From the IMG/VR virus record IMGVR_UViG_3300025913_000032, positions 5,381 through 69,380 of that record: 64,000 nucleotides of DNA, one strand, 5' to 3'. The notes beneath the pieces were generated by a model, which saw only the letters and a list, made by a program, of their open reading frames with translations, searched no databases and was not told the origin of the DNA. Shown one piece after another: positions 3,443 to 42,985 of this stretch (within the stretch, counting starts at the first letter, position 1; each line of letters begins with the position of its first letter). The translations under genes and the position numbers were made by a program. Source of the DNA: a virus.

Positions 3443-3617
3443 TGAACTCCTTTGCCGAACGGGAGGAAAGTGGAGGGTCGGCTTGTCCCTACCGGCCCTC
3501 CCAATCACAGGAGGAACTAGAGTGTCTATTCGCACCCTTGACTCAGCAGTTTATAGCAAAGTTGTCACGGAAACAATGAGGAATGTTACCACACTTAGCG
3601 GTCTGTCACTTTCCGTA

Positions 3618-3646
3618 TTGCACTTTCTGGGTTTCTGTATTACACT
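3618..3646 (+). promoter_or_regulatory. Sigma70-like promoter, probably leaderless transcript
   Basis: TTGCAC-17 bp-TACACT, with ATG 3653 7 nt after the -10 box. Confidence 0.6.
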
Positions 3647-3652
3647 TGCTGT

Positions 3653-3835
3653 ATGGCTGGTAAAAAACTGGGACGACCGAAGTTGCCGAGCGGCGTGGTG
3701 AAAGACGTCATCCGACCAGTGCGGTTCACGCAAGCTGAATTGCGACTATTCGAGAAAGCGGCAAAAGCCAGCGAGCATAAAACACTATCGGCGTGGATTC
3801 GGTCAGTACTGCGAGAGAAGGCGGAAAGTATATGA
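3653..3835 (+). CDS. Ribbon-helix-helix-like DNA-binding protein
   Basis: GRPK basic N-terminus and VRFTQAELRLFEKAAKASEHKTLSAWIRSVL pattern. Confidence 0.7.
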   Translation: MAGKKLGRPKLPSGVVKDVIRPVRFTQAELRLFEKAAKASEHKTLSAWIRSVLREKAESI

Positions 3836-4368
3836 AGTGTGAGGCGTGTGGTGGTGACGGGTTGATTGAGTATGACGGTTATAGAGGCGGTAATGGAACC
3901 GAGACGCGTACGTGCCAGCTTTGTGGCGGGACGGTAACGGTAGATGCAGCAACTACCGATACAGTGGACATGTTAACCACTACGAGCGGCGTTGCGTCAT
4001 CACCGAGTAACGCAATACGATCACCAACGAAGTCATCAAAGAAACCTACGAGCTTGCTGCGTAGAACGCAGCCTAAACCTCATCTGTATCATACATGGAG
4101 CGACGTAGAAGTAACTGGCGGAAGTAAGTGGGATTTAAGCTCTCGCCGTGTTGAGTTCAGTTGTAAGTGTGGTGAGACTTTGATCTTCAACACAGCGGGT
4201 CAACTAACACACGGCTCTGTTTCAGAACCTGAACTAGCAGGACTGTCCTACCGGGCACGCGTAGAGTCGCTGAAAGATAAAGCAAGGCGGCGCGGGGAAG
4301 AGATTGTAGGTATCAGTCCTCCCGAAGATACCAGCGGAGAAGTTAACGGTCCCGCACACGGATGGTGA
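3832..4368 (+). CDS. Hypothetical protein with DnaJ-type Zn-finger N-terminus
   Basis: ATGA overlap with upstream gene; CEACGGDG...CQLCGGT. Confidence 0.55.
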   Translation: MKCEACGGDGLIEYDGYRGGNGTETRTCQLCGGTVTVDAATTDTVDMLTTTSGVASSPSNAIRSPTKSSKKPTSLLRRTQPKPHLYHTWSDVEVTGGSKWDLSSRRVEFSCKCGETLIFNTAGQLTHGSVSEPELAGLSYRARVESLKDKARRRGEEIVGISPPEDTSGEVNGPAHGW

Positions 4369-24412: not shown

Positions 24413-24909
24413 GCTGCACGCTCCTCGACATTGAACCCGGCTTCACGCACAAACCTCACTAGCCCCGCCTGAATCGACTTCTGCAGCCTGCGCTTTTGCG
24501 TCTCGGCAAGGGAGATCGGCGGGCGGGCAGGCATCCGTCGCGTGCCACGCTGATGAGCAGTGGCGTATGGTACGCTCGTCCCGATAGTCAGCCCGTCAGC
24601 TTCAGGCCGCAGGATTGCACCGACAGCTTCAGGGTCGGTCAGCGACTGAACCAAATCGTCGTCAAACCGCAAAATAGGCTTATCAGGCCGCACTCTCTGT
24701 TTATACCTCGCATACACGTCGCTGAGTGCCGCCCACTTGCCGGACGCACCTGCCGCACCCTCACTCTCAAACTGCTCTGCTTCAATCAGGTAAAACTCGC
24801 GGATGACTTCGGGCCAAAGCGGGCGCAGGTCGCTGAGGGAGTCGATGCGGTTGAACGCACGGTTAAAGACTTCCTCGCCCAGTACCTCTGCTCGTAGTCG
24901 GAATGGCAT
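24409..24909 (-). CDS. Virion morphogenesis / tail completion protein
   Basis: KWAALS..Y...IGTSVPYATAHQRGTRRMPARP motif (Mu gpG / P2 gpS-like). Confidence 0.8.
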   Translation of the reverse strand: MPFRLRAEVLGEEVFNRAFNRIDSLSDLRPLWPEVIREFYLIEAEQFESEGAAGASGKWAALSDVYARYKQRVRPDKPILRFDDDLVQSLTDPEAVGAILRPEADGLTIGTSVPYATAHQRGTRRMPARPPISLAETQKRRLQKSIQAGLVRFVREAGFNVEERAA

Positions 24910-25520
24910 CAGACCAGCACTGCCTCCCTTCGTCGATAGAGTTCTACGATGGCCCAGACTCGTGGCGGCAGTTTCTCTCGGAGGACCAGTCCCTCGGTGT
25001 TAATCAACTTCACCGACGCCGGGTCAGTCTCCCGCAGCAGGTTGATGGTCAACTCGATGACGGCAAGCTTCACATCCGCCGGTGTTGCCGCATATCCCCA
25101 CTTCGCCATGACTGTAATCGGCACCCCCGCCCACCACCCTGCACCAATCCGCCACCATGACGGAAACGGAGGCCACTGGTGCAGTAGCGAGTTGTCGCTA
25201 GTCGTCAGCACCAGATAGCCATCACGCTCGATGAAGGTCGGGGCTGTGTAGCCGTCGGGTACGGTGATGGCCGCCACTAGCGTCCCAGCGACATATGCAT
25301 CCAGCCGCAGGAAGTTGGTGCCGTCGCCGTAGAAGGTGCGTGGCGTAGTCGTCGCTCCGGCTGGTTCAAAGAACTGCGGTGGTACGCCGACTGCTAAATC
25401 AAAGAATCTGCTCGCCCGCTCAATCAGCTTCGTCAGGTAGTCGGTGGTCGCGGCCACTGGGCCGGACGCTGAAATCTGCGTGCCCGCTTCGATGACTTCC
25501 GCTGGAGTGCAATAGACCAT
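24909..25520 (-). CDS. Head-tail adaptor protein
   Basis: YCTPAEV..LIERASRFFD..WGYAATPADVKLAVIEL. Confidence 0.8.
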   Translation of the reverse strand: MVYCTPAEVIEAGTQISASGPVAATTDYLTKLIERASRFFDLAVGVPPQFFEPAGATTTPRTFYGDGTNFLRLDAYVAGTLVAAITVPDGYTAPTFIERDGYLVLTTSDNSLLHQWPPFPSWWRIGAGWWAGVPITVMAKWGYAATPADVKLAVIELTINLLRETDPASVKLINTEGLVLREKLPPRVWAIVELYRRREAVLV

Positions 25521-25523
25521 TGG

Positions 25524-26900
25524 TTATGCGGCCCTTGCTTTGCCGCTTTTGTTCTCCTTCGGGCCGGTCAGCGCCTTGTTCTCCGCTGGTCCATCAACCA
25601 TCTTGCCGACTTCGACGATACGCGACTGCTCGCCTATCCAGCCCTGTTCGATGGCGAGGTCCATCGGCACCTTTGTGCCAACTCCGGCGAACTGGAATGC
25701 CGCACCGGGCGGAATACGCCCGCGCTCCAGCTCAGCCCTGTAGCTGCCATCTTTCATCTTCCAGATAACCCGATCACTAATCCAGATGTTCATGTCCTTT
25801 GCCTCATGGTCCATGTGCCACTTGTCAGCGGTGGCGATTAGCGCCGCTTCCAGCCGGTCGAACTCAACCTCCGGTTGCAGCGACTCAGCCAGCGCCAGCG
25901 CCGCGCCTGCCCGCTGCTGGTAGTAAACGTCATCGGTGTAGAGCCGATCAACTTCCTTCTCCCACGCATCCACATCATTACGGTCACAGAAGATTGCTGC
26001 GTTGCCGAATGCTTCACGCAGCCCCTCAGTCGGGTGCGCGATGGTGGGGATGCCTGCGCACGCGGCTTCTACACCCACCCGTCCATACGACTCATAATCC
26101 GACGGCATCAACAGCACACGCGTGCGGCGAAAGACGTTGCGGATATCAGGGTCACGACGCAAGTGCGTGACGTTGGGCAGCCCATAGCAGTTCTGCTCAT
26201 CACCTTTGTCGTCGTAAAACGGATGATGGCGGCGTTCGACTGGCACGGTCACCCGATGCGAGTCACGGCTGGGACAGCAGTCCTGATGGTTGTAGCCGCC
26301 TTGCGCGGTGATGAATTGCAAGTTAGGGAAGCGCTGAGCCAACTCGTAGAACACCGCTGACCCTTTCGTAGTAGTCGGGTTGACCAGCGTCACCCCACCC
26401 CCACGCTCGCAGGTGTAGCGATGCGGCTCAACGACTGGATGGACCACGATTGACGGCCCCGGCCATAGGGTTAACTCATCAGGATTGCGATAGGTCCAGT
26501 CCTTTTCAAGGTCGGCAATCCACTGGGAGTTGAAGACGACCAGCTGAGCCTTCAGCGGGATCACGCGCCAGAACTCTAACTGCGCGCCATTGTGGACGAA
26601 GTGGACGAGGGGTTTGTGTGTGTTAAGTGCCAGTTGCATAGCCAGGCTGGTTAGGTCAAGGTGCGTGACGAGCAGGTCGGCGTCAGCCACAAAGCTACGT
26701 AGCCAGTTCTGTTGATTGCGGCGCGGAGGCCGTACCACCTCAATACCACTGTCGGTGTACGGTGCAACAACACTGCGGTCACAAATCACCTGTACCTGAT
26801 GGCCACGCCGCACCATCGCAGCCAGCGCCGCATGGACTGTCGTCTCCGAACCAGCGCAATGCTCGGGAAAGAAAAGGTGAAAGTAGCCGACTATCTTCAT
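25524..26900 (-). CDS. GT4 (GT-B) glycosyltransferase with C-terminal fused small head-associated-like domain
   Basis: AGSE N-terminal motif; LLMPSDYESYGRVGVEAACAGIPTIA (EX7E); internal RBS-like sequence and ATG at 25793. Confidence 0.85.
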   Translation of the reverse strand: MKIVGYFHLFFPEHCAGSETTVHAALAAMVRRGHQVQVICDRSVVAPYTDSGIEVVRPPRRNQQNWLRSFVADADLLVTHLDLTSLAMQLALNTHKPLVHFVHNGAQLEFWRVIPLKAQLVVFNSQWIADLEKDWTYRNPDELTLWPGPSIVVHPVVEPHRYTCERGGGVTLVNPTTTKGSAVFYELAQRFPNLQFITAQGGYNHQDCCPSRDSHRVTVPVERRHHPFYDDKGDEQNCYGLPNVTHLRRDPDIRNVFRRTRVLLMPSDYESYGRVGVEAACAGIPTIAHPTEGLREAFGNAAIFCDRNDVDAWEKEVDRLYTDDVYYQQRAGAALALAESLQPEVEFDRLEAALIATADKWHMDHEAKDMNIWISDRVIWKMKDGSYRAELERGRIPPGAAFQFAGVGTKVPMDLAIEQGWIGEQSRIVEVGKMVDGPAENKALTGPKENKSGKARAA

Positions 26901-26914
26901 CGTCTATGCTTGGT

Positions 26915-26962
26915 GCGGCGGCTTCCCCGAAGAAAGGCAATTCCGGCAAGGAGAGCCGCCGC
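26915..26962. terminator. Stem-loop after the capsid gene
   Basis: GCGGCGGCT...AGCCGCCGC inverted repeat. Confidence 0.5.
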
Positions 26963-27000: not shown

Positions 27001-28341
27001 CTAGCTATTCGCCCCAGCGTGCAGGTCGATCTTCACCACTGCGGGCGGTCGCAACACTCCGAACGCCCAGCGACCCTCATAGAGAATGTCGATGATATTG
27101 CGTTCGAAGTGGTCACGGTTTGAGTCGGTGATGTAGACCGTCGGGTCCTGGCGGTCCCAGACGACCAACTGTTTCAAGTCGCCGGTGTAGCCGGTGCCCT
27201 GCGGGATGACCTCAGACTCGATCACCGGCAGACCCCAGAGCATCTTTGTGCCCATCTGCATTGGGCCACCGAAGTAGAATTGGCCCTGCGCTCCACGCGC
27301 TAGGTCAATGGTTTCCCAATCATACGGGTTGAGCAGGAAGCCGGTAGAGCGAGCGCGACCTACAATAAGCGCGGCGGTGCGGGCTTTGCGCGTCGTGGTC
27401 AACATCCCACCAGTGGTGTCCTCGGAGTCGGCAACAAACGGCTGCGGCGTCAGGTTGGGCGTGTTCTCCAGCCCGGTAAAGTGGTTCGCGCCACCCGGAC
27501 CGGCGATAATCTCCTCTTCCAGTTCAAGGTCGATGTCCTTACGCGTAAACTCGGTCATCATTGACTGGAGTTGCGGGAAGTCGGAGAGGATTGTGCGCGT
27601 CGCGTTCATGATGACGGCGATGGTCTTCACTGCCGTCTGTATCACCTCCAGCGCCATGCTGGCTTTCGGTTTGAGCGCGTTGTCGTCGGTGAGCGAAGTT
27701 GCCTCAGGGACGATTGCCGCCGCGCGATTCAGCGCGTTGACCCGGACATACTCGATGAGATTCGACCCTGTTTGCAGGATGGTAATCACGTCGCGGATGG
27801 ATGGTTGGCGCAACGGCAGGTCAATCGGCCACGGGCCGTAGTCGCGTCGCACCAGCGAGCCTCCTGCCGACCCCGGCACGGTCATCACTAGCGTGTCTTT
27901 GAACGAGAGATCGCCCAGTCCCACGTCCTTCAGCGCGATAGTCGGTGAACGCCCAAACCGCACCGACGCATTCATCTCCTTGCCTTCAGGGGCAATTTGT
28001 TCGCGCCACGACTTGAACTCCGGGGCGCTGAAAATCAGCTCACCGGTGGACTTCAACTCCGGCTGCACGCCGCTGTAGCCGTTGCCGCCGCCGGGAAAGT
28101 CAGGTCGATGGCCCGGTTGTTTAAGGAAGTCGTCAATAGCCTTCAGACGCTTGCCGCGATCCTCAGTCTTGGTTTCCTCGTCAACTTCGGCCTTCAGGTC
28201 TTCGATGGACTTCCAGCGGGTGTCAAGTTCCTTCTGCTGTTCAGCGGTAGGTTTCTCATCACCCTGCTTCTCCCAGAACGCTTTCTCTTCATCCGCCAGC
28301 GCTCTGAGCCGTTCCTTGGCGGTCTTCTCTTTTTCAGCCAT
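27001..28341 (-). CDS. Major capsid protein, HK97 fold
   Basis: Coiled-coil delta domain; EEEIIAGPG; LNPYDWETI; LWGLPVIESEVIP; FGVLRPPAVV. Confidence 0.95.
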   Translation of the reverse strand: MAEKEKTAKERLRALADEEKAFWEKQGDEKPTAEQQKELDTRWKSIEDLKAEVDEETKTEDRGKRLKAIDDFLKQPGHRPDFPGGGNGYSGVQPELKSTGELIFSAPEFKSWREQIAPEGKEMNASVRFGRSPTIALKDVGLGDLSFKDTLVMTVPGSAGGSLVRRDYGPWPIDLPLRQPSIRDVITILQTGSNLIEYVRVNALNRAAAIVPEATSLTDDNALKPKASMALEVIQTAVKTIAVIMNATRTILSDFPQLQSMMTEFTRKDIDLELEEEIIAGPGGANHFTGLENTPNLTPQPFVADSEDTTGGMLTTTRKARTAALIVGRARSTGFLLNPYDWETIDLARGAQGQFYFGGPMQMGTKMLWGLPVIESEVIPQGTGYTGDLKQLVVWDRQDPTVYITDSNRDHFERNIIDILYEGRWAFGVLRPPAVVKIDLHAGANS

Positions 28342-29455
28342 TTGCTGCTCCTTGTTTGTCTACCTGCGCCAGAAGCAGGGCGATCTCGCTTCTCAGGCGC
28401 AGTGATTGAGTCCTTAGCGCACCCGTATCAACCTCCTTCTCTTTCGGCGGTGGCTCAGAAGCAGCAAGGAGTTCGTCTAACGCGTCTCTTGCGGCCACCA
28501 CCTTCGCGCGATTTGAAGCAGAGAGAATCCGGCCCTCCTTGACCCGGTTCTCATGGTTGCGCTGCATGTTGTGCGTATGCTTCTCAACTGCGGATACCAC
28601 AGCATCGAAGGACTCAAAGGAGTCGGCTACCGTGCTGCCTTTGAGATAAAATTCGTCGTCAGAACTGTTCAAAAATTCTTCAATCTGCGCCGTCACCAGT
28701 GGAATCATCGTCGGCGGGTACTCGTTAAACGCCTCAGTTACCTTCGCCTTCCAGTCGATGACCACGCCGGTGGTGCCGGAGTCTTTGGCAGTCTCGGCAA
28801 TCTTGCGAACTACACGACGCAGGGCTGACTCCACCTCCCACGTCGAAGGCGTCGTCTGGGCCATCTCTTCAGCGAGCATGCCTTTGGCCCCATCAACCGA
28901 CTTCACGCCTGTGGCCATCGCCATCCGGTTCATCGGAGCAGTGACAATGGAGTCTTCCATAATCTCGCCCTGCTTCAGGATGCGGATGCGGTCGAACTTC
29001 TGCGCTTTGAGCAGGTTGGCTTGCAGGCGGTCGGCTTTGACGTAGAGCGGCAACTGGTCCTTGTAGTCTTTTGCTTCGATATAGGACTTGTCGCTGATGG
29101 AATAGCCAAAAGAGAAGCCGACGCGTTTACCAGCCTTGGCGCGCTCCAATGACTTGGTACGGACGGCCTGCGCGTCAGGAGTGGAGTGAAACTCCGACTC
29201 AACAAACAACCCGTGGTCGTCTTCCTTCGCCTCGACTGGATAGCCAACCAGCTTGTCATAATCCCAGTCGTGGGAGTGAGCGGTGAATCCAGCGGTGAGA
29301 TACTCAGCCAGCGAATCCTTGAAGAATCCCGGCACAATTAAGTCGCCACCTTCGTCAATTTCACTGAACACCGCACGATAGCCGGAGATTCGCCCCGGCC
29401 CCTCGTCCTTGACCGTCAGGTCTTTCAGGTCGATAAATTTGCGCTCAATGTTCAT
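28334..29455 (-). CDS. HK97-type prohead protease with C-terminal extension
   Basis: ISGYRAVFSEIDEGGDLIVPGFF, EDDHGLFV, GFSFGY, EDSIVTAPMN; KEGRILSASN. Confidence 0.9.
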   Translation of the reverse strand: MNIERKFIDLKDLTVKDEGPGRISGYRAVFSEIDEGGDLIVPGFFKDSLAEYLTAGFTAHSHDWDYDKLVGYPVEAKEDDHGLFVESEFHSTPDAQAVRTKSLERAKAGKRVGFSFGYSISDKSYIEAKDYKDQLPLYVKADRLQANLLKAQKFDRIRILKQGEIMEDSIVTAPMNRMAMATGVKSVDGAKGMLAEEMAQTTPSTWEVESALRRVVRKIAETAKDSGTTGVVIDWKAKVTEAFNEYPPTMIPLVTAQIEEFLNSSDDEFYLKGSTVADSFESFDAVVSAVEKHTHNMQRNHENRVKEGRILSASNRAKVVAARDALDELLAASEPPPKEKEVDTGALRTQSLRLRSEIALLLAQVDKQGAANG

Positions 29456-29473
29456 TGGCGGCGCTCCCAAACG

Positions 29474-29992: not shown

Positions 29993-30268
29993 CTATCCGT
30001 GCAGCCATTTGGCGGCGAGTTCCCGCATCTTGGCAGGGCAGTGAGTGCGCGGTTCAAGGTTCCCGCACCACTCGCAGAGCATGAGGTTGTAGCTGATGTT
30101 GAAGGCGCGTCCACCGAGGAAACCGCCGGTGTCGGGGTGCCGACCACGCCCACTAGCTTGTTGTCGTGTCATGTGGCAGGCTAATAGCGACTCGTCCAGC
30201 TCGTTGTCCCGGATTAACTGGAGCAGGGCGAGGTAAGCGTGACGAGGTAGCGGTTGCAGCGCGTTCAT
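29993..30268 (-). CDS. Hypothetical protein with CxxC
   Basis: ATGA overlap with GT11 stop. Confidence 0.5.
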   Translation of the reverse strand: MNALQPLPRHAYLALLQLIRDNELDESLLACHMTRQQASGRGRHPDTGGFLGGRAFNISYNLMLCEWCGNLEPRTHCPAKMRELAAKWLHG

Positions 30269-31023
30269 TGCCAGTCGATTATCCTCCATGTCGGCCCATA
30301 GACGTCCTCACCAGTGATCTGCGCATAAGCTGGCCCAAACCACGGACGTGGTGCAACCACTTGCTTGTCGGGCGCATCGCTCAGCACGGCGGCAATGGCA
30401 CTGTAACTGCTGTTGCCGATGATGAATCGGGTGCAGGACTTCATCAGCTTGAAGTCATCAAGGTAATCACGTCCCTCGCTGTACTCCACTTCGTCGCCGA
30501 ACATCCGCTTGCACTCGTCAATGTCATCGCTGAACACAAGGTATGGACCAGCGACGTGACGCATAGCTTCGCGATAGTAGGACTCCGGCACGCGCGGATG
30601 GTAGCGGTCATCGTAATCACCCCGGCGCACGTGGATGGCGCAATAGTCGTTACGCTGATAATCACCCTTCATCCGCAAATACCAGCGACACTCGTCAATG
30701 GCGTGGGAGAAGTAACGCTCGCTCTGGAAATGCCCCGACAGACTGACACTGTGGGTCAGGTTTACTTCGTGGTAGCCCCACTCGACTGGATGGTCCGGCA
30801 GCGCTGGCCCATCGTAGAGCAGCAGTGGATTAATGAAGTGCTTGTACACGTCACAGTCCTCAGTACTACCGAAGCGCTCCTTATGGTCCCAGTTAACCAG
30901 CAGCGGGAAAGCGAAGTCGAAGTTGTTGCGCCGTGCGATGCCGATGACGCCGCAGACTTGGTACAACATGTTGGCCCAGCGACCGTAGCGCCCGATGGTG
31001 TTGCAGGTGACGATGTTGCTCAT
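30265..31023 (-). CDS. GT11 alpha-1,2-fucosyltransferase-like
   Basis: GRWANMLYQ, GHFQSERYF, AIHVRRGDY, LVFSDD, IIGNSSYS motifs. Confidence 0.92.
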   Translation of the reverse strand: MSNIVTCNTIGRYGRWANMLYQVCGVIGIARRNNFDFAFPLLVNWDHKERFGSTEDCDVYKHFINPLLLYDGPALPDHPVEWGYHEVNLTHSVSLSGHFQSERYFSHAIDECRWYLRMKGDYQRNDYCAIHVRRGDYDDRYHPRVPESYYREAMRHVAGPYLVFSDDIDECKRMFGDEVEYSEGRDYLDDFKLMKSCTRFIIGNSSYSAIAAVLSDAPDKQVVAPRPWFGPAYAQITGEDVYGPTWRIIDWQ

Positions 31024-31202
31024 CGATAACGCTCACACTCCCTGTGTTCAAAGCTGAGACGATAAAAGGCGAGTGCCAAATGGTAGATACAGATCTTTGT
31101 CCAGAATTCAGCCTCACGCAAATAGCCGAAATAGACGTGGCGTTGGATAACGCCGGCAAAGTACGCCGCACAATGCATGTGATATTTGGAGTCTGTCATC
31201 AC
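31020..31202 (-). CDS. Hypothetical protein
   Basis: Translationally coupled on both sides. Confidence 0.45.
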   Translation of the reverse strand: MMTDSKYHMHCAAYFAGVIQRHVYFGYLREAEFWTKICIYHLALAFYRLSFEHRECERYR

Positions 31203-31855
31203 ATTGTATCCGCTGGTGGTGGTAGCCAGCCTCGATTGAAATACTGTTGCCACTCCAACAGTGGATGTGCCGCACACTCAGGAAACAGTGGTTCGTACTC
31301 TTGGCGACAGAGGACCAAGTTGCCAGTGTGACAAACGACAAAGTAGCCCCGCTCCAGTGCCGCCGTCGTCATGGCCCAGTAACCGACACCGCCATCGGGG
31401 TTGATGTACTCGCTGGGTGGTTCGATGGAGGAGTCAATCTCGACGATGACGATTTTAGGCTGCGCTTGCATGCCGCAGAAGATGTCATAGTCGCCGCCGT
31501 CAGTGTCAAGGGACAGTACGTCGCACCGTTCGTCAACAAACGCGTTGATGTTGTGGCCGTCCACGCAGCAGCACTGCGCCCTCACACGCGGGTTGTTGGC
31601 CCAGTTGGTCCTGCATTGCTGGTAGAGGCTGTAGTTGGCTTCGACGTATAAGCCAGACCAGTATGAATCAATCAGCAATGCAATGTTAGAGCAGTACTTC
31701 CCATCATTTCCTCCTATCTCAACCGCATGGCCCGCGCCTTCATTAGCCAGCACGCCTGCGTCAACAAACCGTCGTACACACTGAATCAGTACCCCTTCCT
31801 CACCGTTTTGAGAATAGAAGAGATTGCGCGCGTACCTGTTCAGGAAGTCAAGCAT
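31199..31855 (-). CDS. FkbM-like SAM methyltransferase
   Basis: YSQNGEEGV, VEIGGNDG..SN, WSGLYVEA, VLSLDTDGGDY, PKIVIVEI. Confidence 0.8.
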   Translation of the reverse strand: MLDFLNRYARNLFYSQNGEEGVLIQCVRRFVDAGVLANEGAGHAVEIGGNDGKYCSNIALLIDSYWSGLYVEANYSLYQQCRTNWANNPRVRAQCCCVDGHNINAFVDERCDVLSLDTDGGDYDIFCGMQAQPKIVIVEIDSSIEPPSEYINPDGGVGYWAMTTAALERGYFVVCHTGNLVLCRQEYEPLFPECAAHPLLEWQQYFNRGWLPPPADTM

Positions 31856-32405
31856 CCCGCCTCCACGTCCCATAACAGCAATCCGCATCAAAGAAACCCG
31901 GTAGGCGGTCGGTGTAGCGGCGCACTACTCCACCGAACCAGCGAACAAAGTCGTCCTCAGTAAACGTGTGAGGATGATACACGCAAGTCGGGTAGTTCAC
32001 GGGTTCAAAGAAGCGCACCACAGGCGCGACTTCCTTCGCCCTAGCAACCACGCGCTCCGGGTCGCGGACGTGCTGGAGACAGTTGAATAGCCAGCACTCG
32101 TCGGACCTGATCATGTCGGCATCTTCAAAGGGTTCCCTCAGCCAGATCACGCCAACCAGCTTTTCAAGCTCAGCGAACCATAGTGGCTCAACGAGGACGG
32201 GTTGGACATCGGTAACGAACGAGGTCGCTGGATACGGCCCGCAGCCGACTTCAGTGATGGTCTTACCATACTGGTCAAATACCATGTTGAGATAGTCGAA
32301 CGTCAGCCGAGTTGCGCGATAGGCATTCGCCTCGGTGTAAGTAGCAACCGCCGCTTCAGCAACCTGCGCCTCTTGCCAGCGGGTGTGGGTGATGGGTTCG
32401 ATCAT
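31848..32405 (-). CDS. Class I SAM-dependent methyltransferase-like
   Basis: ITEVGCGP motif I; FNCLQHVRDP. Confidence 0.75.
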   Translation of the reverse strand: MIEPITHTRWQEAQVAEAAVATYTEANAYRATRLTFDYLNMVFDQYGKTITEVGCGPYPATSFVTDVQPVLVEPLWFAELEKLVGVIWLREPFEDADMIRSDECWLFNCLQHVRDPERVVARAKEVAPVVRFFEPVNYPTCVYHPHTFTEDDFVRWFGGVVRRYTDRLPGFFDADCCYGTWRRDA

Positions 32406-33462: not shown

Positions 33463-34047
33463 TTACTTAACGTGAGTCCAAGCCTCCCCTTTTACTACGT
33501 TACAAATCAATCGGACGCTGACGCCGTGTTTACGCGCCAGCCCCTTAAAACCATACTCGGATGAGCCGCGCCTATATGTAGCACGAATAGACCGGACATT
33601 AGACTCTGTCAACTTGGCTAGCGGGTGTTTTTCACCCTGCACATCAGGGCGCGATAAGGCACGTACCACAGCGTGCGGCACTGTGCCACGACCACCACGC
33701 GAACAATTCATCATACGTGGCACGCTCGCCATGTTCTTGTGCATTTGAATAACGTATATCTCGTACCTGTCAAGCATCTCCTGAGGTACGTTAGGGGCCA
33801 TTGTGTGAAGCAAGTCGAGTCTGTGAGCATCAAATCCGTATCGCAATAAAGAACGCGCTAACAGCCGTTGGTGTCTGCCGTGACTGCCGCCCTTTCCCCT
33901 TGCTATCGAACGGTAGTTTGCCATACGTCCCTTAAGGTTTCGTGTCTGACCTATATAAACAGCACCCGATGGCGAAGTCAGCCGATACAGAACAGCGCTA
34001 CCCGATGAGCTTGGTATCACTAAGTTCAAAAACTTTGGTGTAGTCAT
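33463..34047 (-). CDS. GIY-YIG homing endonuclease with C-terminal HTH
   Basis: VLYRLTSPSGAVYIGQTRNLKGR; GEKHPLAKLTE...LARKHGVS. Confidence 0.85.
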   Translation of the reverse strand: MTTPKFLNLVIPSSSGSAVLYRLTSPSGAVYIGQTRNLKGRMANYRSIARGKGGSHGRHQRLLARSLLRYGFDAHRLDLLHTMAPNVPQEMLDRYEIYVIQMHKNMASVPRMMNCSRGGRGTVPHAVVRALSRPDVQGEKHPLAKLTESNVRSIRATYRRGSSEYGFKGLARKHGVSVRLICNVVKGEAWTHVK

Positions 34048-34609
34048 CAACACGTCCCCATATCATCGAATACCGAGGTCTTTGATATGCAACCATTGGT
34101 GCAACTATAAACGCCTGCAACTCCGGTAATAGGTCGCTCAATGCGTTGTCAAACATACGCTCATTCAGCGAGGGTTGCTTACCAAGAATGAACTCTACGC
34201 ACTTCTTATGATAAGCAACCGCATGCGTGGTCCACGCTGCACGTACTCGCCACAGGTGGTCACTAAATCGTTCCAGCTGTGGCTCACCATCATTCCAGCA
34301 AACAAGATTCGCGCCGAGGTACAGGATGTCCCAGTCGGCGGGTAACTCGCTCAACGCAGCAGGTAGATGGTCCAAGTTGCGGAATACAACATCATCCTCC
34401 AGATGCAACAGTACCTCGTCGGTGGAGTACAGAAACTCCAACAGAATGTTCCGCTCGCTGTGGCTGAACGACTGATGCGGGCCGATTTCCCGCACCGCGT
34501 GGTATGGTTGCACCACTAGCCCGACACGCTCGCACTCAGCTGCACCCAGCGCGTACTCGTTGCTGTTGGCGGTGAGCATGATGACGCGGTGGAAGAAGGA
34601 CCAGTCCAT
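33998..34609 (-). CDS. GT25-like glycosyltransferase
   Basis: SH..IL, LHLEDDVVF, DWDILYLG, TTHAVAY, PMVAYQ motifs. Confidence 0.85.
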   Translation of the reverse strand: MDWSFFHRVIMLTANSNEYALGAAECERVGLVVQPYHAVREIGPHQSFSHSERNILLEFLYSTDEVLLHLEDDVVFRNLDHLPAALSELPADWDILYLGANLVCWNDGEPQLERFSDHLWRVRAAWTTHAVAYHKKCVEFILGKQPSLNERMFDNALSDLLPELQAFIVAPMVAYQRPRYSMIWGRVDDYTKVFELSDTKLIG

Positions 34610-34884
34610 TAGTTCTCCGTACCAACCACATCCGGCCATTCTATATCAAGAAACTCAAAGCTGACGTTCTTCAGGTCCAGCGTCAGGGAGTTACCCTCGT
34701 CAACCGTCGTTGGCCTCGGTAGTGGCGACAACATCGATGGACCACCCACCCGCTCACAGACGCCGTAGTGCGTGACGGTCCAGTCGGTGTCAGCCTCGAA
34801 GGTGGCATGATGCCGCTCGTCAATCACCGCGTTGGCGAGGCGGGTCAGGGTGTTGCCGTCGTCGTGGTAGAGGGAGGCGATCAT
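34609..34884 (-). CDS. Small protein resembling a fibre-module structural domain
   Basis: TFEADTDWTVTHYGV...PTTVDEGNSLTL. Confidence 0.45.
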   Translation of the reverse strand: MIASLYHDDGNTLTRLANAVIDERHHATFEADTDWTVTHYGVCERVGGPSMLSPLPRPTTVDEGNSLTLDLKNVSFEFLDIEWPDVVGTEN

Positions 34885-34886
34885 TA

Positions 34887-35120
34887 CTAGTTGTTATCGT
34901 CCACGATAGTGCAGTTATCCCAATCCAAATCGGCGACATGTTCTGGGCCTAATTGCTCTCGGACGATACGCTCGGCAAACGCCTTCTTGCTTTCGGCCTG
35001 CATATCGGGATGATCAAAGACAAATTCCGTCCGCCCGCCCATCTCAATCTCATGGCCACAGCATCCAGTATCGCAACCATAACCACGGTGGTAAACAATA
35101 ACTTTCGTCATCACAACCAC
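34887..35120 (-). CDS. Hypothetical Cys-rich protein
   Basis: HRGYGCDTGCCGH. Confidence 0.55.
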   Translation of the reverse strand: MVVMTKVIVYHRGYGCDTGCCGHEIEMGGRTEFVFDHPDMQAESKKAFAERIVREQLGPEHVADLDWDNCTIVDDNN

Positions 35121-35214
35121 CTGTCAATCAGCCTGCGCCACAGGGGCTTGCGTAATCTGTAGAACAACTCAGCGTTGGCGTTCATTGGTGCATGTCTCCT
35201 TTCGACTGTCGCAG

Positions 35215-35251
35215 ATTCTACTTGACTTTTGTTTCGCGTGTCAACTATAAT
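35215..35251. promoter_or_regulatory. Overlapping divergent sigma70 promoters
   Basis: Plus: TTGACT-18-TATAAT; minus: TTGACA-18-TAGAAT. Confidence 0.75.
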
Positions 35252-35258
35252 CGCTTTC

Positions 35259-35471
35259 ATGAAACTTGGCGACGTAATCCGACGTTACCGCATTATGAGT
35301 GAGTTGACATTGCGCGAGGTAGGTAAGGACATTGGCATTGGGGCAGCGACGTTAATGCGGCTGGAGCACGGACTGGAGCCTGATGGTCGCACGTTGGCGA
35401 AGGTATTAATGTGGCTGATGCAGGCGCATAGCACCAACGGCACCCGCAGCAAGACGGAGGGACGACGATGA
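35259..35471 (+). CDS. Cro/C1-type HTH regulator
   Basis: LGDVIRRYRIMSELTLREVGKDIGIGAATLMRLEHG. Confidence 0.85.
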   Translation: MKLGDVIRRYRIMSELTLREVGKDIGIGAATLMRLEHGLEPDGRTLAKVLMWLMQAHSTNGTRSKTEGRR

Positions 35472-36734
35472 GCATCTATCTCTTTCACTCGTTACAGACA
35501 CTGAGCGCATCGTGCGAGGCGGCTACAGCGGCGACGAAGGCACTTGGTGATGTAATTCAGGCTCAATACCCAACGTGGCTGATAATCGAGGGTGGCAACT
35601 GGCCTGACAGGTTCTCATTGCTAAACCGCTACCTGCGCACGGGCGTGGAACCTGAGTACTTCTCAGACGAAAGGTGGACAGCAGATGGCAAAGGGTAAAT
35701 CGTGGAAGAAAGCAGCGCCGAAGAAGCGCAAGGCAACCAGTTCGCAGCGCAAGGGCAGGCCGCAGAGTTGAGACGGAGGGGCGACGGGGGTGAGTGACAA
35801 GACTAAGACTGTTGGTTGTATCGGTGCCTTAATCATTCTGCTGATGACCGGAGCCGTAGTCGGTTTGGTGGAACTTGCCCGCAGTGTCGGCGCGCAACAA
35901 TACTTTTGGGCTTTTCAGGCAGTGGTTACTATTATGGGCTTGGCAGGCGTAATCAGCGCGATCGAGCGGCACCCACCGCAGACTGAAAGCGAGGGACGGG
36001 ATGGCTGAGAAGGTAAAAGAACGCATCTTTTCCGGTAAGCCCAGCAAGTCCATGTGGGAGTACATTAACAAATTGCGGGATTACAGTGAGCCGACGCACA
36101 TGGCAATCTACGTCTTGGCCTGTCGCTATCAGGAACTGGAGGCGTTAGTACGTAAGCTACAACAGCGCGTGGAGTCTGAGCAATGAGTGAGCGGGATGAC
36201 GACACGCGATATTTGCTGCTGTGGGTTATCTATGTCGGTCTTTTCCTGTTTGCGTATCTTGAGGCCGACTCGTGGATTCAGCGCAGTCAGCTTCACGACG
36301 TCCAGCGCCGGGTCGCAGAACTGGAGAGTCGCAAGTGAGTGACGACAACGGTAACAGGCCAGCGATGCGCGACGACATTATCTACGCGGTGATCGTAATA
36401 ATCGTCGCCATGTCACTATGTAGCAACGTTGATAGTTGCAGCAGGCGATTGCAGATTAACAAGCTGCGGGAAGACTTGCAGCGACAACGCTGAAAGGAGC
36501 ACCCAACCTATGCCCACCATCTTCATCACCAGCGCCGACTACGGCCCGCTGCACTTTCCACCGTCGCCCAGCTGCCTGCCGCATACTATCCCGGCGGATG
36601 CAGTGCTGACCCCAGCGTCGGACTGCACCGTGCGAGTGCGTGTGAACGAAGCAACCCATGAAATCGGATACGAGAACGAAGGTGAGGACGGGGTGACGCT
36701 GGTGGTGAAGCCGAAGGGTCAGTCCTGCACGTAG
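35468..36734 (+). other. Run of small hypothetical ORFs, several hydrophobic (35468-35698, 35790-36008, 36001-36186, ~36510-36734)
   Basis: Coupled short ORFs downstream of the HTH gene. Confidence 0.5.
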
Positions 36735-36742
36735 ATCAAAGT
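36719..36742 (-). pseudogene. Displaced former C-terminus of the minor head protein gene
   Basis: TLIYVQD* versus current FHVFVSD*. Confidence 0.55.
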
Positions 36743-37619
36743 GCCTGAACTTTCTACCGCAATCTGGCATTACTCACCCAGCAAGCGCAAGGTTCTTTAC
36801 GCTCATGCCTGTCGAGACTGCGGGAAGATCCGTTTCTTCAATATGAAGCGCATTGCCGCGTTGCGCTGCAAGGACTGTCGAGTTGTATTCCTGAAGACCA
36901 ATCCAAAGCGAGAACCCTACACTTGTAGATTTTGCGGAATTAAGTTTCGCGCGATTTGGCGTAAGGCACGCGAGCCTCAATTCTGCTCGTTAAAATGCCA
37001 CAACGATGCGCAGGCGGCAAGTAACTTAAGTCGGCAAGCCTATCGCATCTGTAAACACTGCCACAAGTCATTCGCTCTTGATCCCAGTGATGCCCGCCGA
37101 AGACCCGCAGAGTCGTGCTCGAATACCTGTCGGCTTGCTCATCACATTTGGATAAACTGCGCCCATTGCAGTAAGAGGTTCAACGCTCGCCACAATACGA
37201 CACGGAGATACTGCTCGAAGCGGTGTTACCTCAGTTCGTGGACCGAAAGCCGTATTGAGAAGCGTGTCCGTATCGCACTCGAAGATTATCAAGTTAACTT
37301 TGAGACTCAGTTTCCGGTGAAAGGCGCGCATCACTTTGACTTCTACGTGCCATCCCTGAACTTGCTGATCGAAGCCGACGGAACCTACTGGCACTCACGA
37401 CCTTGGTCTAAGGAGCGAGATGCGAGGAAGACAGCCAAAGCGGAAGCGTTGGGTTACACTGTATTACGGTTTCCTGAATTATTGATAATGTCAGACCAAT
37501 GGACTACAACATTCAGTGAGGCAATTGCTAATCACTTACAAACACATGAAAGCAGCGGCACCAGTCCCCTCCGCTGCACGACGGTGAAGGCACCGGCTCA
37601 AGTTCCGATTCATCTGTAG
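36741..37619 (+). CDS. DUF559/Vsr-like PD-(D/E)XK endonuclease with multiple CxxC Zn fingers
   Basis: ESRIEKRV..FETQFPV..HFDFYVPSLNLLIEADGTYWH..RDARK..GYTVLRF. Confidence 0.85.
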   Translation: MPELSTAIWHYSPSKRKVLYAHACRDCGKIRFFNMKRIAALRCKDCRVVFLKTNPKREPYTCRFCGIKFRAIWRKAREPQFCSLKCHNDAQAASNLSRQAYRICKHCHKSFALDPSDARRRPAESCSNTCRLAHHIWINCAHCSKRFNARHNTTRRYCSKRCYLSSWTESRIEKRVRIALEDYQVNFETQFPVKGAHHFDFYVPSLNLLIEADGTYWHSRPWSKERDARKTAKAEALGYTVLRFPELLIMSDQWTTTFSEAIANHLQTHESSGTSPLRCTTVKAPAQVPIHL

Positions 37620-40486: not shown

Positions 40487-41911
40487 TTAGAAGAATTGCA
40501 TGTCTTTGGTTGATGAAGCGCGATAAGCCATCGCCCCAGCGACAAACGAATCCGGTGGATGGCCCTTGGTCCCGCCCATCAAATCCTCGTTGGTGCAGTA
40601 GCGGTGCTCAGACTCGCAGTAGCGAATCTTGGCGCTGACGATGGCTCGATCCTCAATCGCGGCAATGTACTTGGTGAACACGTCCGCGCGCGTCTGCCCC
40701 GCCAGCACCACCCCCCGTGCATCAGCTTCCTGATAGTCGTCAACCACGTCGCCCAGTCCGGTGGCGTCATGACACGCTGGACCGGGATACTTCGCCACCC
40801 GCGCGTCGAACTTGGCAATCATCATCGGCCACGACATGCGCTGGTAGCGGGACCATGCAACACGACGCATTGGTCGTACGTCGGTACGGAAGGTGTCAAT
40901 CACCGTGTGGTCGCGCTTCTTGGCCCAGTCGCCGCCGGTGGCATAGACCGCACCCGCTACAGGCTCCTCGATGATTAGCTCGTAACCCATAGGACCAGCA
41001 AGCTGCTGCGGGGTGAGCAGGCCATTGAACTCGTCACGGAAGCACGCATCGACAGCTTCAGGAAGAATTGCACGTCCCTCTGGCGACGGCTCCTGCAAGT
41101 CGTACTCAGCCGCCCACATAGATGCGGTAACCTCACCGCGCTTGGACTCAATCTCTTCCTGTGTGAGCCAGCCATCCGGCTGCACGCTCGTCTCCCGGTA
41201 GCACCACTCCTGCACCGGCCAGCCTTTCTCAGCTGCACGCTTCTTAATCTCGGTGAAGGTGCCAGCAGCGTAGTGGTGGGTAGATGACATCACCGTCTGT
41301 TTCGCCACCTTCGCCGTACCCATTGGTTGACCCATCGCGGCGTCGAGGATGGCCAGCTCCATCTCGTCGACCTCATCCAGTCGCATGCGTTGTGGATGTG
41401 GACCACGGGCGGATTTCGACGAGGCCATCAGCGCGGTGACTAACCCTCCCGACCGGTAGCGAGTCCGTCGCTGAATGTTCTCCTCACCTCCCGACCACTT
41501 TTGCAGGTATTCGATAACGCGCGTTGACTGCTCGCCTGAACCGCCGAGGATTGTCACCTCTGCGCCAAGCGTGTCGGCTTCAATGTGGCCCAGCAGCGCG
41601 AGTAGGTACGACTTGCCCGCAAACCCGCGTGAGCCTTCCCAGACGGTGACATTGTGACGCGCGAAGTAGGCGTCGGCAAAGGCGCGAAACGGCGTGCAGT
41701 GGTTGGGGCAGACAGGAGTGTCGGGGATGGTGATGCCGAGGGTGGTGAGCAGGTAGTGTTTGAGTTCGGTGTCGGTAGTCGGCGCGGTTCTAGTTAATGC
41801 GGTCTGTTGCTGTTGGCTCTGGATCTCCTGTAGACGATCCGCTACCGGCCACAGGTGCTTCAGCCGGAGCGAAGGAGGCAGCGAGTTTTCCAAGGTCAAG
41901 TTTGACGCCAT
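40487..41911 (-). CDS. Terminase large subunit
   Basis: GSRGFAGKS Walker A, RLDEVDEM Walker B, GGDWAKKRDHTV and DATGLGD nuclease motifs. Confidence 0.92.
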   Translation of the reverse strand: MASNLTLENSLPPSLRLKHLWPVADRLQEIQSQQQQTALTRTAPTTDTELKHYLLTTLGITIPDTPVCPNHCTPFRAFADAYFARHNVTVWEGSRGFAGKSYLLALLGHIEADTLGAEVTILGGSGEQSTRVIEYLQKWSGGEENIQRRTRYRSGGLVTALMASSKSARGPHPQRMRLDEVDEMELAILDAAMGQPMGTAKVAKQTVMSSTHHYAAGTFTEIKKRAAEKGWPVQEWCYRETSVQPDGWLTQEEIESKRGEVTASMWAAEYDLQEPSPEGRAILPEAVDACFRDEFNGLLTPQQLAGPMGYELIIEEPVAGAVYATGGDWAKKRDHTVIDTFRTDVRPMRRVAWSRYQRMSWPMMIAKFDARVAKYPGPACHDATGLGDVVDDYQEADARGVVLAGQTRADVFTKYIAAIEDRAIVSAKIRYCESEHRYCTNEDLMGGTKGHPPDSFVAGAMAYRASSTKDMQFF

Positions 41912-42599
41912 CGGTTTCAGACTGCGCGAACTTCAGCCATTCTAGCGCATCTTTGTCACTCTGAAGTACGCCGTCTTTCATCTTGGTCTTAATTACCCGC
42001 ATAGCGAGCCGCAACCGCTCAGCACGAGACGCTATTCCAATCATCAGCGACAGCCGGTCTATCTCCGCCGCGAAGTCCGGGTGGTGCAGCCAGTTGAAGA
42101 TCGTCTGTCGGTGTACTTGCACTTGCTCGGCGGCTTCATCACGAGTAGCGCCAGAAGCAAGTAGTACCGCCGCTTGTGAGCGTTGCTCATTCCAGCAGAA
42201 TCGCTCCGCAGGTCGAATGTTGGTAGAGAGATTCGTTTTGGCTCGAACTACCGTGTCGTCCTCATCCGACCAGTCGATCAACACTGTTGCAACGCCGGAT
42301 TCCCGTCTCTCGCCATCAGGGTTGCGAACCACGTTAACGAGATCCGGCAGCTTGTTTATCCAGTATGATTCTCGTTGAAACCGCTGGTCCTGGGCGCATT
42401 CTTCGAGCAGTTCAATGACGAGGTTGTCGATGCCGATTTCCTGGACGACGCGGGTGAACTCAGGATTACGATGCAGGCCGCTGGTGACGTGATTTTTATG
42501 CTTACCCAGCCGCCAGTCGAGGTTGCGCTTGGTGCTGCCGACATAGAAGTAGGTAGTTGAGTCCTTGGCGCGTAAGCCGTAGATGTAGCAGGTGGTCAT
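41790..42599 (-). CDS. Terminase small subunit-like HTH protein with N-terminal GIY-YIG domain
   Basis: YIYGL..FYVGST..RL..H..E.YWI N-terminus; AAVLLASGATRDEAAEQVQVHRQTIFNWL HTH; directly upstream of TerL. Confidence 0.75.
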   Translation of the reverse strand: MTTCYIYGLRAKDSTTYFYVGSTKRNLDWRLGKHKNHVTSGLHRNPEFTRVVQEIGIDNLVIELLEECAQDQRFQRESYWINKLPDLVNVVRNPDGERRESGVATVLIDWSDEDDTVVRAKTNLSTNIRPAERFCWNEQRSQAAVLLASGATRDEAAEQVQVHRQTIFNWLHHPDFAAEIDRLSLMIGIASRAERLRLAMRVIKTKMKDGVLQSDKDALEWLKFAQSETDGVKLDLGKLAASFAPAEAPVAGSGSSTGDPEPTATDRIN

Positions 42600-42961
42600 G
42601 GTACTACCTCTACTCGCGCCTCAGACGGAACGTTACACGAATCCCGGTGATGCGCGAGATGACAGGGACGACACATCCAGACAATCAGTAGAGGGCTATT
42701 GTAATCAGGATGGTGCATCTGCACGCCTTCCGTTATACCGCATGTCTTACACGGCTCCGGTTCGAGTAGTCCACGGCGTTTATACACGCCTGCATAGCTC
42801 CTGATATTGTCTTTATAGCGCTGTTCCGGCGTTAGTGAATGAGTCTTGCGCCAGTTGCGCATGTACTCGGCGTGGTGTTCTCTGCAATAGCGCTTAGTGA
42901 GCGGATTCACTGCTGGATTGAGACAGTTCGGTCTGGCGCAAGTTGTCTTACGTTCACTCAT
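42596..42961 (-). CDS. Small HNH-type nuclease
   Basis: PCKTCG..MHHPDYNSPLLIVWMCRPCH. Confidence 0.7.
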   Translation of the reverse strand: MSERKTTCARPNCLNPAVNPLTKRYCREHHAEYMRNWRKTHSLTPEQRYKDNIRSYAGVYKRRGLLEPEPCKTCGITEGVQMHHPDYNSPLLIVWMCRPCHLAHHRDSCNVPSEARVEVVP

Positions 42962-42985
42962 GTCAGTGTACCACAACCACGCAAC

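Follow-up and report, generated by a model that had tools for sequence, protein, structure and literature searches.

What is a glycosyltransferase doing in the head module of a phage, between the capsid and the adaptor genes, and why does its reading frame run on into a second, small protein? The question is raised by an open reading frame (ORF) on the minus strand of the window analysed here, a stretch of 64,000 nucleotides (positions 5,381 to 69,380) of the IMG/VR record IMGVR_UViG_3300025913_000032. The record stems from an uncultured soil phage, comprises 69,380 bases and is complete according to CheckV; the window covers nearly all of it. The original prediction had read this ORF as a GT4 glycosyltransferase joined in frame to a small post-capsid protein that starts at an internal ATG at 25793. 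The fusion is real: there is one ORF of 458 amino acids, the internal ATG encodes M370, and from there 89 residues (MNIW...KARAA) run to the stop. Its parts are the following.

25524..26900, minus strand: fused ORF of 458 amino acids, with an ATG start and its stop codon at 25524-25526 (ORF list)
25794..26900, minus strand: GT4 glycosyltransferase of the GT-B fold, residues 1-369, closing helix 343-370 included (Pfam, PHROG, AlphaFold2, Foldseek)
25794..25805, minus strand: GAGGCAAAGGAC, a purine-rich stretch resembling a Shine-Dalgarno sequence that directly precedes the internal ATG
25791..25793, minus strand: in-frame ATG inside the ORF, encoding M370; the invariant W373 follows three codons later
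25641..25793, minus strand: small beta domain (residues 370-420) made up of one helix and five short strands, with G-W-I-G at its end (AlphaFold2 models)
25527..25640, minus strand: disordered tail, residues 421-458, with two P-x-E-N-K repeats, a basic end and a terminal Ala-Ala
25569-25589 and 25548-25562, minus strand: the P-x-E-N-K repeats within the tail (sequence)

The assignment of the enzyme part rests on family matches and on structure prediction. Residues 17-325 match five Pfam GT4 models, all above cut-off (bits, with the cut-off in brackets: PF00534 51.7 (26.4); PF13692 43.6 (27); PF13439 33.9 (28.5); PF20706 32 (26); PF13579 30.6 (29.7)), and the GT4 part matches phrog_26352 at 3e-65. 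The AlphaFold2 model, built from an alignment of 39 sequences, has a mean predicted local distance difference test score (pLDDT) of 86 and shows a GT-B fold with two Rossmann-like halves and a long closing helix (343-370). Foldseek returned retaining GT4 enzymes as the best structural matches, namely MshA (3c4q, E 2e-15), BshA, PglA and PimA, and the same was found by sequence. E270 and E278, eight positions apart, are invariant in the 39 aligned sequences, and we take this pair to be the E-x7-E motif of the C-terminal half of the GT4 family. Judged by these matches and the model, the enzyme is a GT4 glycosyltransferase, probably of the retaining type. The further proposal that it is an initiating glycosyltransferase found no support in any of the results.

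The module begins where the GT-B fold ends, as had been claimed: in the model the closing helix reaches residue 370 and a separate beta domain comes next. It is not an ordinary GT4 tail, since the Pfam GT4 models and the solved GT4 structures end before it. The beta domain is compact at residues 372-420, with a pLDDT of 83-92 in the full model and of 78-90 when the module was folded alone. From residue 428 on the chain is disordered, with a pLDDT below 50. The tail carries E-N-K at residues 440 and 449, and P438, E440, K442, P447 and K451 are invariant or nearly so. Outside the tail, E-[NT]-K occurs once in the 12,688 residues of the window ORFs, in the N-terminal region of the capsid protein. 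With the motif confined to the tail and this one capsid copy, the idea that E-N-K is a prohead-protease site or a targeting signal was dropped. The module alone matched no family in Pfam or PHROG, and tblastn of the module against cultured phages gave no match. In the ESM Atlas it was found in unnamed small viral clusters only, at 0.88-0.89.

To which proteins, then, is the module related? In a search of 1.84 billion representative proteins, a profile built from the module (alignment A2) gave 52 matches at E<=1e-3, most of them spanning profile positions 2-83; 46 of the 52 have at most 175 amino acids. Four of the short matches (P0123, P0126, P0129 and P0134) are plain fragments of fused genes, and most of the short matches are complete small proteins with a Met start. 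The alignment of the module with these standalone members covers both the beta domain and the tail. Their domain follows the pattern W-x-S-D-R-R-L-x-L-T-A-D-G-x-V-V-E...L-L-V-G-x-G-G-x-I-P...G-L, and the tail after it reads K-A-[IV]-x-x-P-P-E-N-K-A-[IV]-x-x-P-x-E-N-K, followed by a basic end. The standalone genes encode 75-145 amino acids, and some of their products match phrog_20183 or phrog_16445, both of unknown function. When three standalone members were compared with cultured phages by tblastn, one record only (MW202444.1) was found, and two of the three had no match. One long profile match, P0163 (2078 amino acids), is a repeat protein with nine partial matches and was taken as spurious. 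The small protein also occurs in variant forms, with the beta domain duplicated in tandem (P0167), with a zinc-ribbon-like C-terminal extension (P0147) or with a coiled-coil extension (P0159).

The standalone genes lie in the same gene slot as the module, which in the window is bordered as follows.

28334..29470, minus strand: prohead protease (S78) with a long C-terminal extension (PF04586 3.2e-11, phrog_80 7.6e-22)
27001..28341, minus strand: major capsid protein of the HK97 type with an N-terminal delta-like region (PF05065 1.8e-28, phrog_10 1.5e-45), the gene directly upstream of the fused ORF
24909..25520, minus strand: head-tail adaptor (phrog_442 4.8e-09), its ATG 3 bases past the stop of the fused gene

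The order on this strand is protease, capsid, fused gene, adaptor, neck protein, tube protein and tape-measure protein. For the standalone loci, relatives of the neighbours were identified with local profiles: a relative of the window capsid protein is encoded upstream in all three loci with enough upstream DNA, and a relative of the window adaptor directly 3' of the small gene in four of five (L058-L061, not L089). MW202444.1 (L058) has the order protease, capsid, 119-amino-acid ORF, small protein and phrog_442 adaptor; the near-identical phages L059 and L060 have capsid, a 321-amino-acid ORF, a 235-amino-acid ORF, small protein and phrog_442 adaptor. The stop of the small gene and the start of the adaptor gene lie side by side in the window, 3 bases apart, and side by side also in the standalone loci L058, L060, L132 and L094. 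The proposed likeness to a post-capsid small protein is thereby borne out: searched alone, the module finds mostly free-standing small proteins with an E-N-K-repeat basic tail, between HK97-type capsid and adaptor genes and after related capsid genes in every locus with enough upstream DNA to be read. By sequence, the module is a copy of a separate, free-standing family of post-capsid proteins.

The tail motif reaches further than the domain does. In IMG/VR, at least 118 stretches fit a degenerate DNA pattern for E-N-K-A...E-N-K, and the module profile matched ORFs in 28 of these loci. Seven of the 28 are fused genes and L089 is a full-length standalone gene, and most of the others encode small proteins of 49-145 amino acids which match the last helix and the tail only. 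Thus the P-E-N-K-A repeat looks like a short linear motif that belongs to small post-capsid proteins. Twelve E-N-K-tailed loci were annotated; a phrog_10 capsid gene lies upstream in ten and a phrog_442 adaptor gene directly downstream in five. Judged by these motif and profile matches, the E-N-K-tailed proteins are a widespread, unannotated family in many HK97-type phages, with neither a Pfam entry nor a fold match. In six of the twelve loci (L163, L132, L140, L098, L094 and L152) a phrog_5707 protein of 130-158 amino acids, of unknown function, is encoded between the capsid and the small gene, which is the slot held by GT4 in the window. At another locus (L161:2198-3799, plus strand) a 534-amino-acid protein with a C-terminal methyltransferase domain (phrog_6564, 2.3e-68) directly follows the E-N-K-tailed small protein.

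How well is the fusion itself conserved? The homologue search gave 448 sequences at E<=1e-3, and the architecture was counted in the best 120 of the 448. These are mostly 420-465 amino acids long, with 92-100% coverage and 50-89% identity. In 118 of the 120, as in the window, the small-protein module has no separate gene and forms the C-terminal part of the GT4 ORF, and the remaining two (P0104 and P0113) end early, without it. L002, an independent viral contig, carries a fused copy 89% identical to that of the window. Among the IMG/VR loci the family member is in one frame in 17 out of 17, with no split version, and the capsid gene lies just upstream in 16, the 17th contig starting inside the gene. 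Eight further metagenome loci (L029-L031, L033, L034, L037-L039) have 40-51% identity, and by profile the module is in frame at the C-terminus in seven of them. No module was found by profile in L038, and in L033 the frame is broken after 93 amino acids and resumes in another.

Related GT4 enzymes without the module exist as well, and they too are encoded inside structural modules. L019 encodes a GT4 enzyme of 349 amino acids (phrog_26352, 1.6e-105) between the capsid and head-closure genes. Streptomyces phage TurkishDelight encodes gp20 (678 amino acids) between the genes of the capsid and the major tail protein; its C-terminal half matches window residues 2-335 with 31% identity. Both are of the same catalytic family as the window enzyme, and unlike it they have no C-terminal module. 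The contig L020 has two GT4 copies (1812-2708 and 3435-4337), 32-35% identical to the window enzyme, neither with a module.

Compared with the standalone post-capsid proteins, the fused module has the same beta domain, the same K-A-[IV]-x-x-P-P-E-N-K-A repeats, a basic end and the same gene slot. Unlike these proteins, which are encoded by separate genes and end purely basic, the tails of the fused clade (25524-25560, minus strand, in the window, and P0001-P0120) have Ala-Ala, Val-Ala or a similar pair after their basic cluster. A basic stretch with such an ending is reminiscent of the C-terminal recognition tags of ClpX substrates.

The second question is whether the locus also makes the small protein on its own. 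A Met lies at most four residues before the invariant Trp in 112 of 118 homologues. Three residues before the Trp, the 118 sequences have V in 55, M in 42, A in 5, T and K in 3 each, P, N, E and S in 2 each, I and G in 1 each and L in none, a count for which the pattern took the wrong Trp as anchor in two sequences. In standalone members with longer N-termini this position is varied (E, P, A, I, G, K, Q), so the fold does not demand Met or Val there. Where DNA was at hand for a junction Val, the codon was GTG in all four lineages; GTG makes up 0.24-0.33 of the valine codons in those genes, and multiplying the four shares gives about 0.006. A pattern search for further valine-type junctions returned only four unrelated genes.

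The stretch GAGGCAAAGGAC upstream of the window ATG has a predicted duplex energy of -5.6 kcal/mol with the anti-Shine-Dalgarno (anti-SD) sequence. Among the in-frame starts of each gene, predicted SD pairing is strongest at the junction start in 11 of 17 genes, and in all 17, many of which are close relatives, this start is within the top five. Set against all codon positions of the respective gene, its SD strength is in the top 0.5-22% (median 7.6%). The start of the enzyme itself ranks second in L008 and L010 and 9th to 35th in 14 genes, with L011 not listed. In the window the enzyme's own ATG, just after an in-frame TAG, ranks 19th of 27 with almost no pairing (26901-26930, minus strand), and the junction ATG ranks third; this would fit a low expression of the fused form. 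All in all, internal initiation at the junction appears somewhat more probable than its absence, and two products from one locus, as originally proposed, are plausible.

The original prediction went further and had the enzyme tethered to assembling capsids by the module. A complex of the module with the capsid protein and the adaptor was predicted, with a separate alignment for every chain. The co-fold score was 0.43 as compared with 0.00 for the best of three controls, a verdict of weak support, and with the capsid chain replaced and the adaptor kept it was 0.00. The runs share at least 78% of contacts, with a partner pLDDT of at least 60. For calibration, 116 of 157 solved complexes pass this mark, as compared with 2 of 215 mismatched pairs; only 18 of the 157 pass it with a score of at most 0.60, and so do both of the passing mismatched pairs. 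The loss of the score on capsid replacement would agree with the capsid protein, and not the adaptor, as the docking partner, albeit it cannot carry the claim alone. Hence a capsid partner found weak support in this single co-fold, on which the tethering part of the proposal depends, and tethering of the enzyme to capsids is weakly supported by the model.

What could such an enzyme modify? Two further genes of the head module, between a MuF-like gene and the protease gene, bear on this.

30265..31023, minus strand: second glycosyltransferase, GT11-like, in the head module (PF01531 4e-12, phrog_2644 5.7e-38)
31199..31891, minus strand: FkbM-type methyltransferase-like gene, a marginal match (PF05050 1.2e-4, 22.6 bits versus a cut-off of 22.7)

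Taking the marginal FkbM match along with the GT11-like one, the head module would hold at least two glycan-related enzymes besides GT4. From its placement in the late operon, among head genes, the enzyme would seem to act on virion proteins. Phage-encoded glycosyltransferases have been reported to glycosylate the virions of cluster F mycobacteriophages, and mycobacteriophages of the Che8 type have more than one glycosyltransferase per genome, thought to glycosylate capsid and tail proteins (PMC11256854, PMC12619734). The phage of the window is like them in encoding more than one glycosyltransferase. In Maravista the glycosyltransferases are near the 3' end of the genome, and the available parts of these papers do not mention a fusion to a head-module protein (PMC11256854, PMC12619734). 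Unlike this arrangement, with which it is compared by description only, the window enzyme sits between the capsid and adaptor genes and is fused. The same parts of these papers do not deal with the way in which virion-glycosylating enzymes reach their structural substrates (PMC11256854, PMC12619734). No fusion of a glycosyltransferase with a post-capsid protein was described in the literature titles and abstract openings searched, which is no proof of absence.

A possible interpretation, to which we give about even chances, is that the locus is a nested gene which yields the free small protein together with a minor, enzyme-tagged form of it that serves virion glycosylation; the two products, the capsid docking and the substrate are what we infer. 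The full-length start, with almost no SD, would give little of the enzyme carrying the small-protein module, and the conserved ATG or GTG at the junction would give more of the free small protein. During head assembly the shared module would dock on the capsid protein, and a few copies of the enzyme would thereby be placed at their substrate. GT4, the GT11-like enzyme and possibly the methyltransferase would then build a glycan on virion proteins. A broader proposal would make the E-N-K-tailed proteins as a whole a class of head-docking proteins, one of which this clade uses, by way of a nested gene, to deliver a glycosyltransferase to assembling capsids. This we regard as tentative and rather improbable.

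Several observations weigh against the nested delivery of the enzyme. The first concern the internal start. The junction SD of the window is only third of its 27 in-frame starts, and the SD-like stretch is not stronger than expected from synonymous resampling of the six upstream codons: resampled sequences were equal or stronger in 2-77% of the trials, with a fraction of 0.73 for the window and a combined Fisher p of 0.084 over 14 lineages (L039, mis-anchored by the pattern, was left out). A hydrophilic Gly/Glu/Lys linker would give a purine-rich, SD-like stretch anyway. The junction Met is exactly the first residue of two close, short homologues, P0121 and P0122; with contigs of 1.1-1.2 kilobases (kb) as their source, these may or may not be products of unfused genes. 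The others concern the docking. A pass in the weak class is more often wrong than right unless the prior is strong, and the result comes without an interface. For the module alone, Foldseek found no match in the PDB at E<=0.001 (best 0.8) and none in BFVD (best E 0.45), and the best Z in a wide PDB search (VIA-align 2) was 2.5, with a root-mean-square deviation of 4.2 Å over 60 residues. Faint MbtH-like rows in the wide search were taken as chance. None of 14 standalone members tested reached the cut-off of a Pfam family. With neither a fold nor a Pfam match, no binding partner of the module is indicated by fold or family. Moreover, the adaptor gene lies kilobases from the fused gene in many relatives and abuts the small gene in standalone phages, so the partner could be the neck. 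Finally, no relative of the fused protein was found among the GTDB species genomes searched, and hence no host is indicated.

An alternative is a fusion without any targeting role. A GT4 gene would have been inserted into the variable slot after the capsid gene, would have lost its stop and so have joined the resident small gene; the small protein would keep its own job, free or tagged, and the enzyme would act on host envelope glycans or on another phage product. The slot between the capsid and the small gene does hold unrelated inserts elsewhere (the 119-amino-acid ORF, the 321- and 235-amino-acid ORFs and phrog_5707), related GT4 enzymes such as that of L019, with its 349 amino acids, do without the module, and the SD-like stretch is within what the amino acids would give by themselves. 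However, the fusion is kept even at about 50% identity, by 118 of the 120 homologues in all, and none of the 17 viral loci is split. The gene also lies in a late head operon together with a second glycosyltransferase, whereas glycosyltransferases for seroconversion or DNA modification are usually found elsewhere in phage genomes, and replacing the capsid chain abolished the weak pass of the co-fold. We therefore consider a fusion without targeting possible but unlikely.

Nested delivery to the capsid has also to be weighed against delivery to another site. The portal vertex could be where the small protein acts, as a neck or packaging helper in the manner of lambda FI, and the enzyme would then be placed at the portal or adaptor or simply be co-regulated with the adaptor. 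Lambda FI is a packaging helper with the same gene position; the likeness is one of position, and the fold searches of the module gave no PDB chain at E<=0.001 and a best Z of 2.5. The abutting stop of the small gene and start of the adaptor in the window and in the four standalone loci, as well as the related adaptor directly downstream in four of five loci, would agree with such a role. Yet one group of relatives (L005-L010) has the fused gene adjacent to that of the capsid, with the adaptor gene at a distance of several kb, and the co-fold score fell to 0.00 with the capsid chain replaced and the adaptor kept, which is weak evidence. A role at the neck thus seems quite unlikely to us.

An artefact, i. 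e. a lost stop or an assembly error of a single record, or a normal C-terminal extension of GT4, to which the early ends of P0104 and P0113 are the only pointer, is hardly credible and was discarded, because the fusion is conserved over many independent contigs, is in the same single frame in the 17 viral loci and further metagenome loci, and joins to the GT4 fold a module which lies beyond the ends of the Pfam models and solved structures and has standalone homologues.

If the enzyme is delivered by a nested gene, there are known systems of a similar design. In lambda C/Nu3 and in UL26/UL26.5 of herpesviruses, protease and scaffold genes are nested in frame, so that an enzyme and an abundant assembly protein share their C-terminal part. 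The fused gene of the window resembles them in that an enzyme and a small protein share a frame, that the putative internal start would give the free protein in excess and that the part common to both would carry the enzyme to the assembling capsid. Unlike in these systems, the enzyme is a glycosyltransferase and not the maturation protease, and in place of a scaffold both products would have a small beta domain with an E-N-K tail in common.

Some features of the window lie outside the fused gene and its neighbours. Genes resembling HNH or homing endonucleases occur within the structural and packaging modules (99-578, 33463-34053, 41790-42599 and 42596-42976, all on the minus strand), and one of the ORFs in these regions combines a homing-endonuclease-like N-terminus with a part resembling the small terminase. 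From about 34640 to 37530, i. e. over about 3 kb from the head-module genes to the MuF-like gene, there are only short ORFs, on both strands. No tRNA genes were found in the window.

What does the fusion mean for these phages? The conserved fusion of a glycosyltransferase with a head-module protein, with a likely internal start, offers a concrete and testable targeting mechanism for the recently found glycosylation of virions. It also draws attention to a common, unannotated family of small proteins with an almost invariant P-E-N-K-A linear motif. Should the docking prove false, there would still be a clear gene fusion which retained the start codon of its downstream partner. Should it prove true, the module could be used as a handle for loading other cargo on phage heads. 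And if the nested gene does provide such a delivery handle, this would be the first case of a glycosylation enzyme targeted to the capsid, and it would follow the design principle of the nested protease and scaffold genes.

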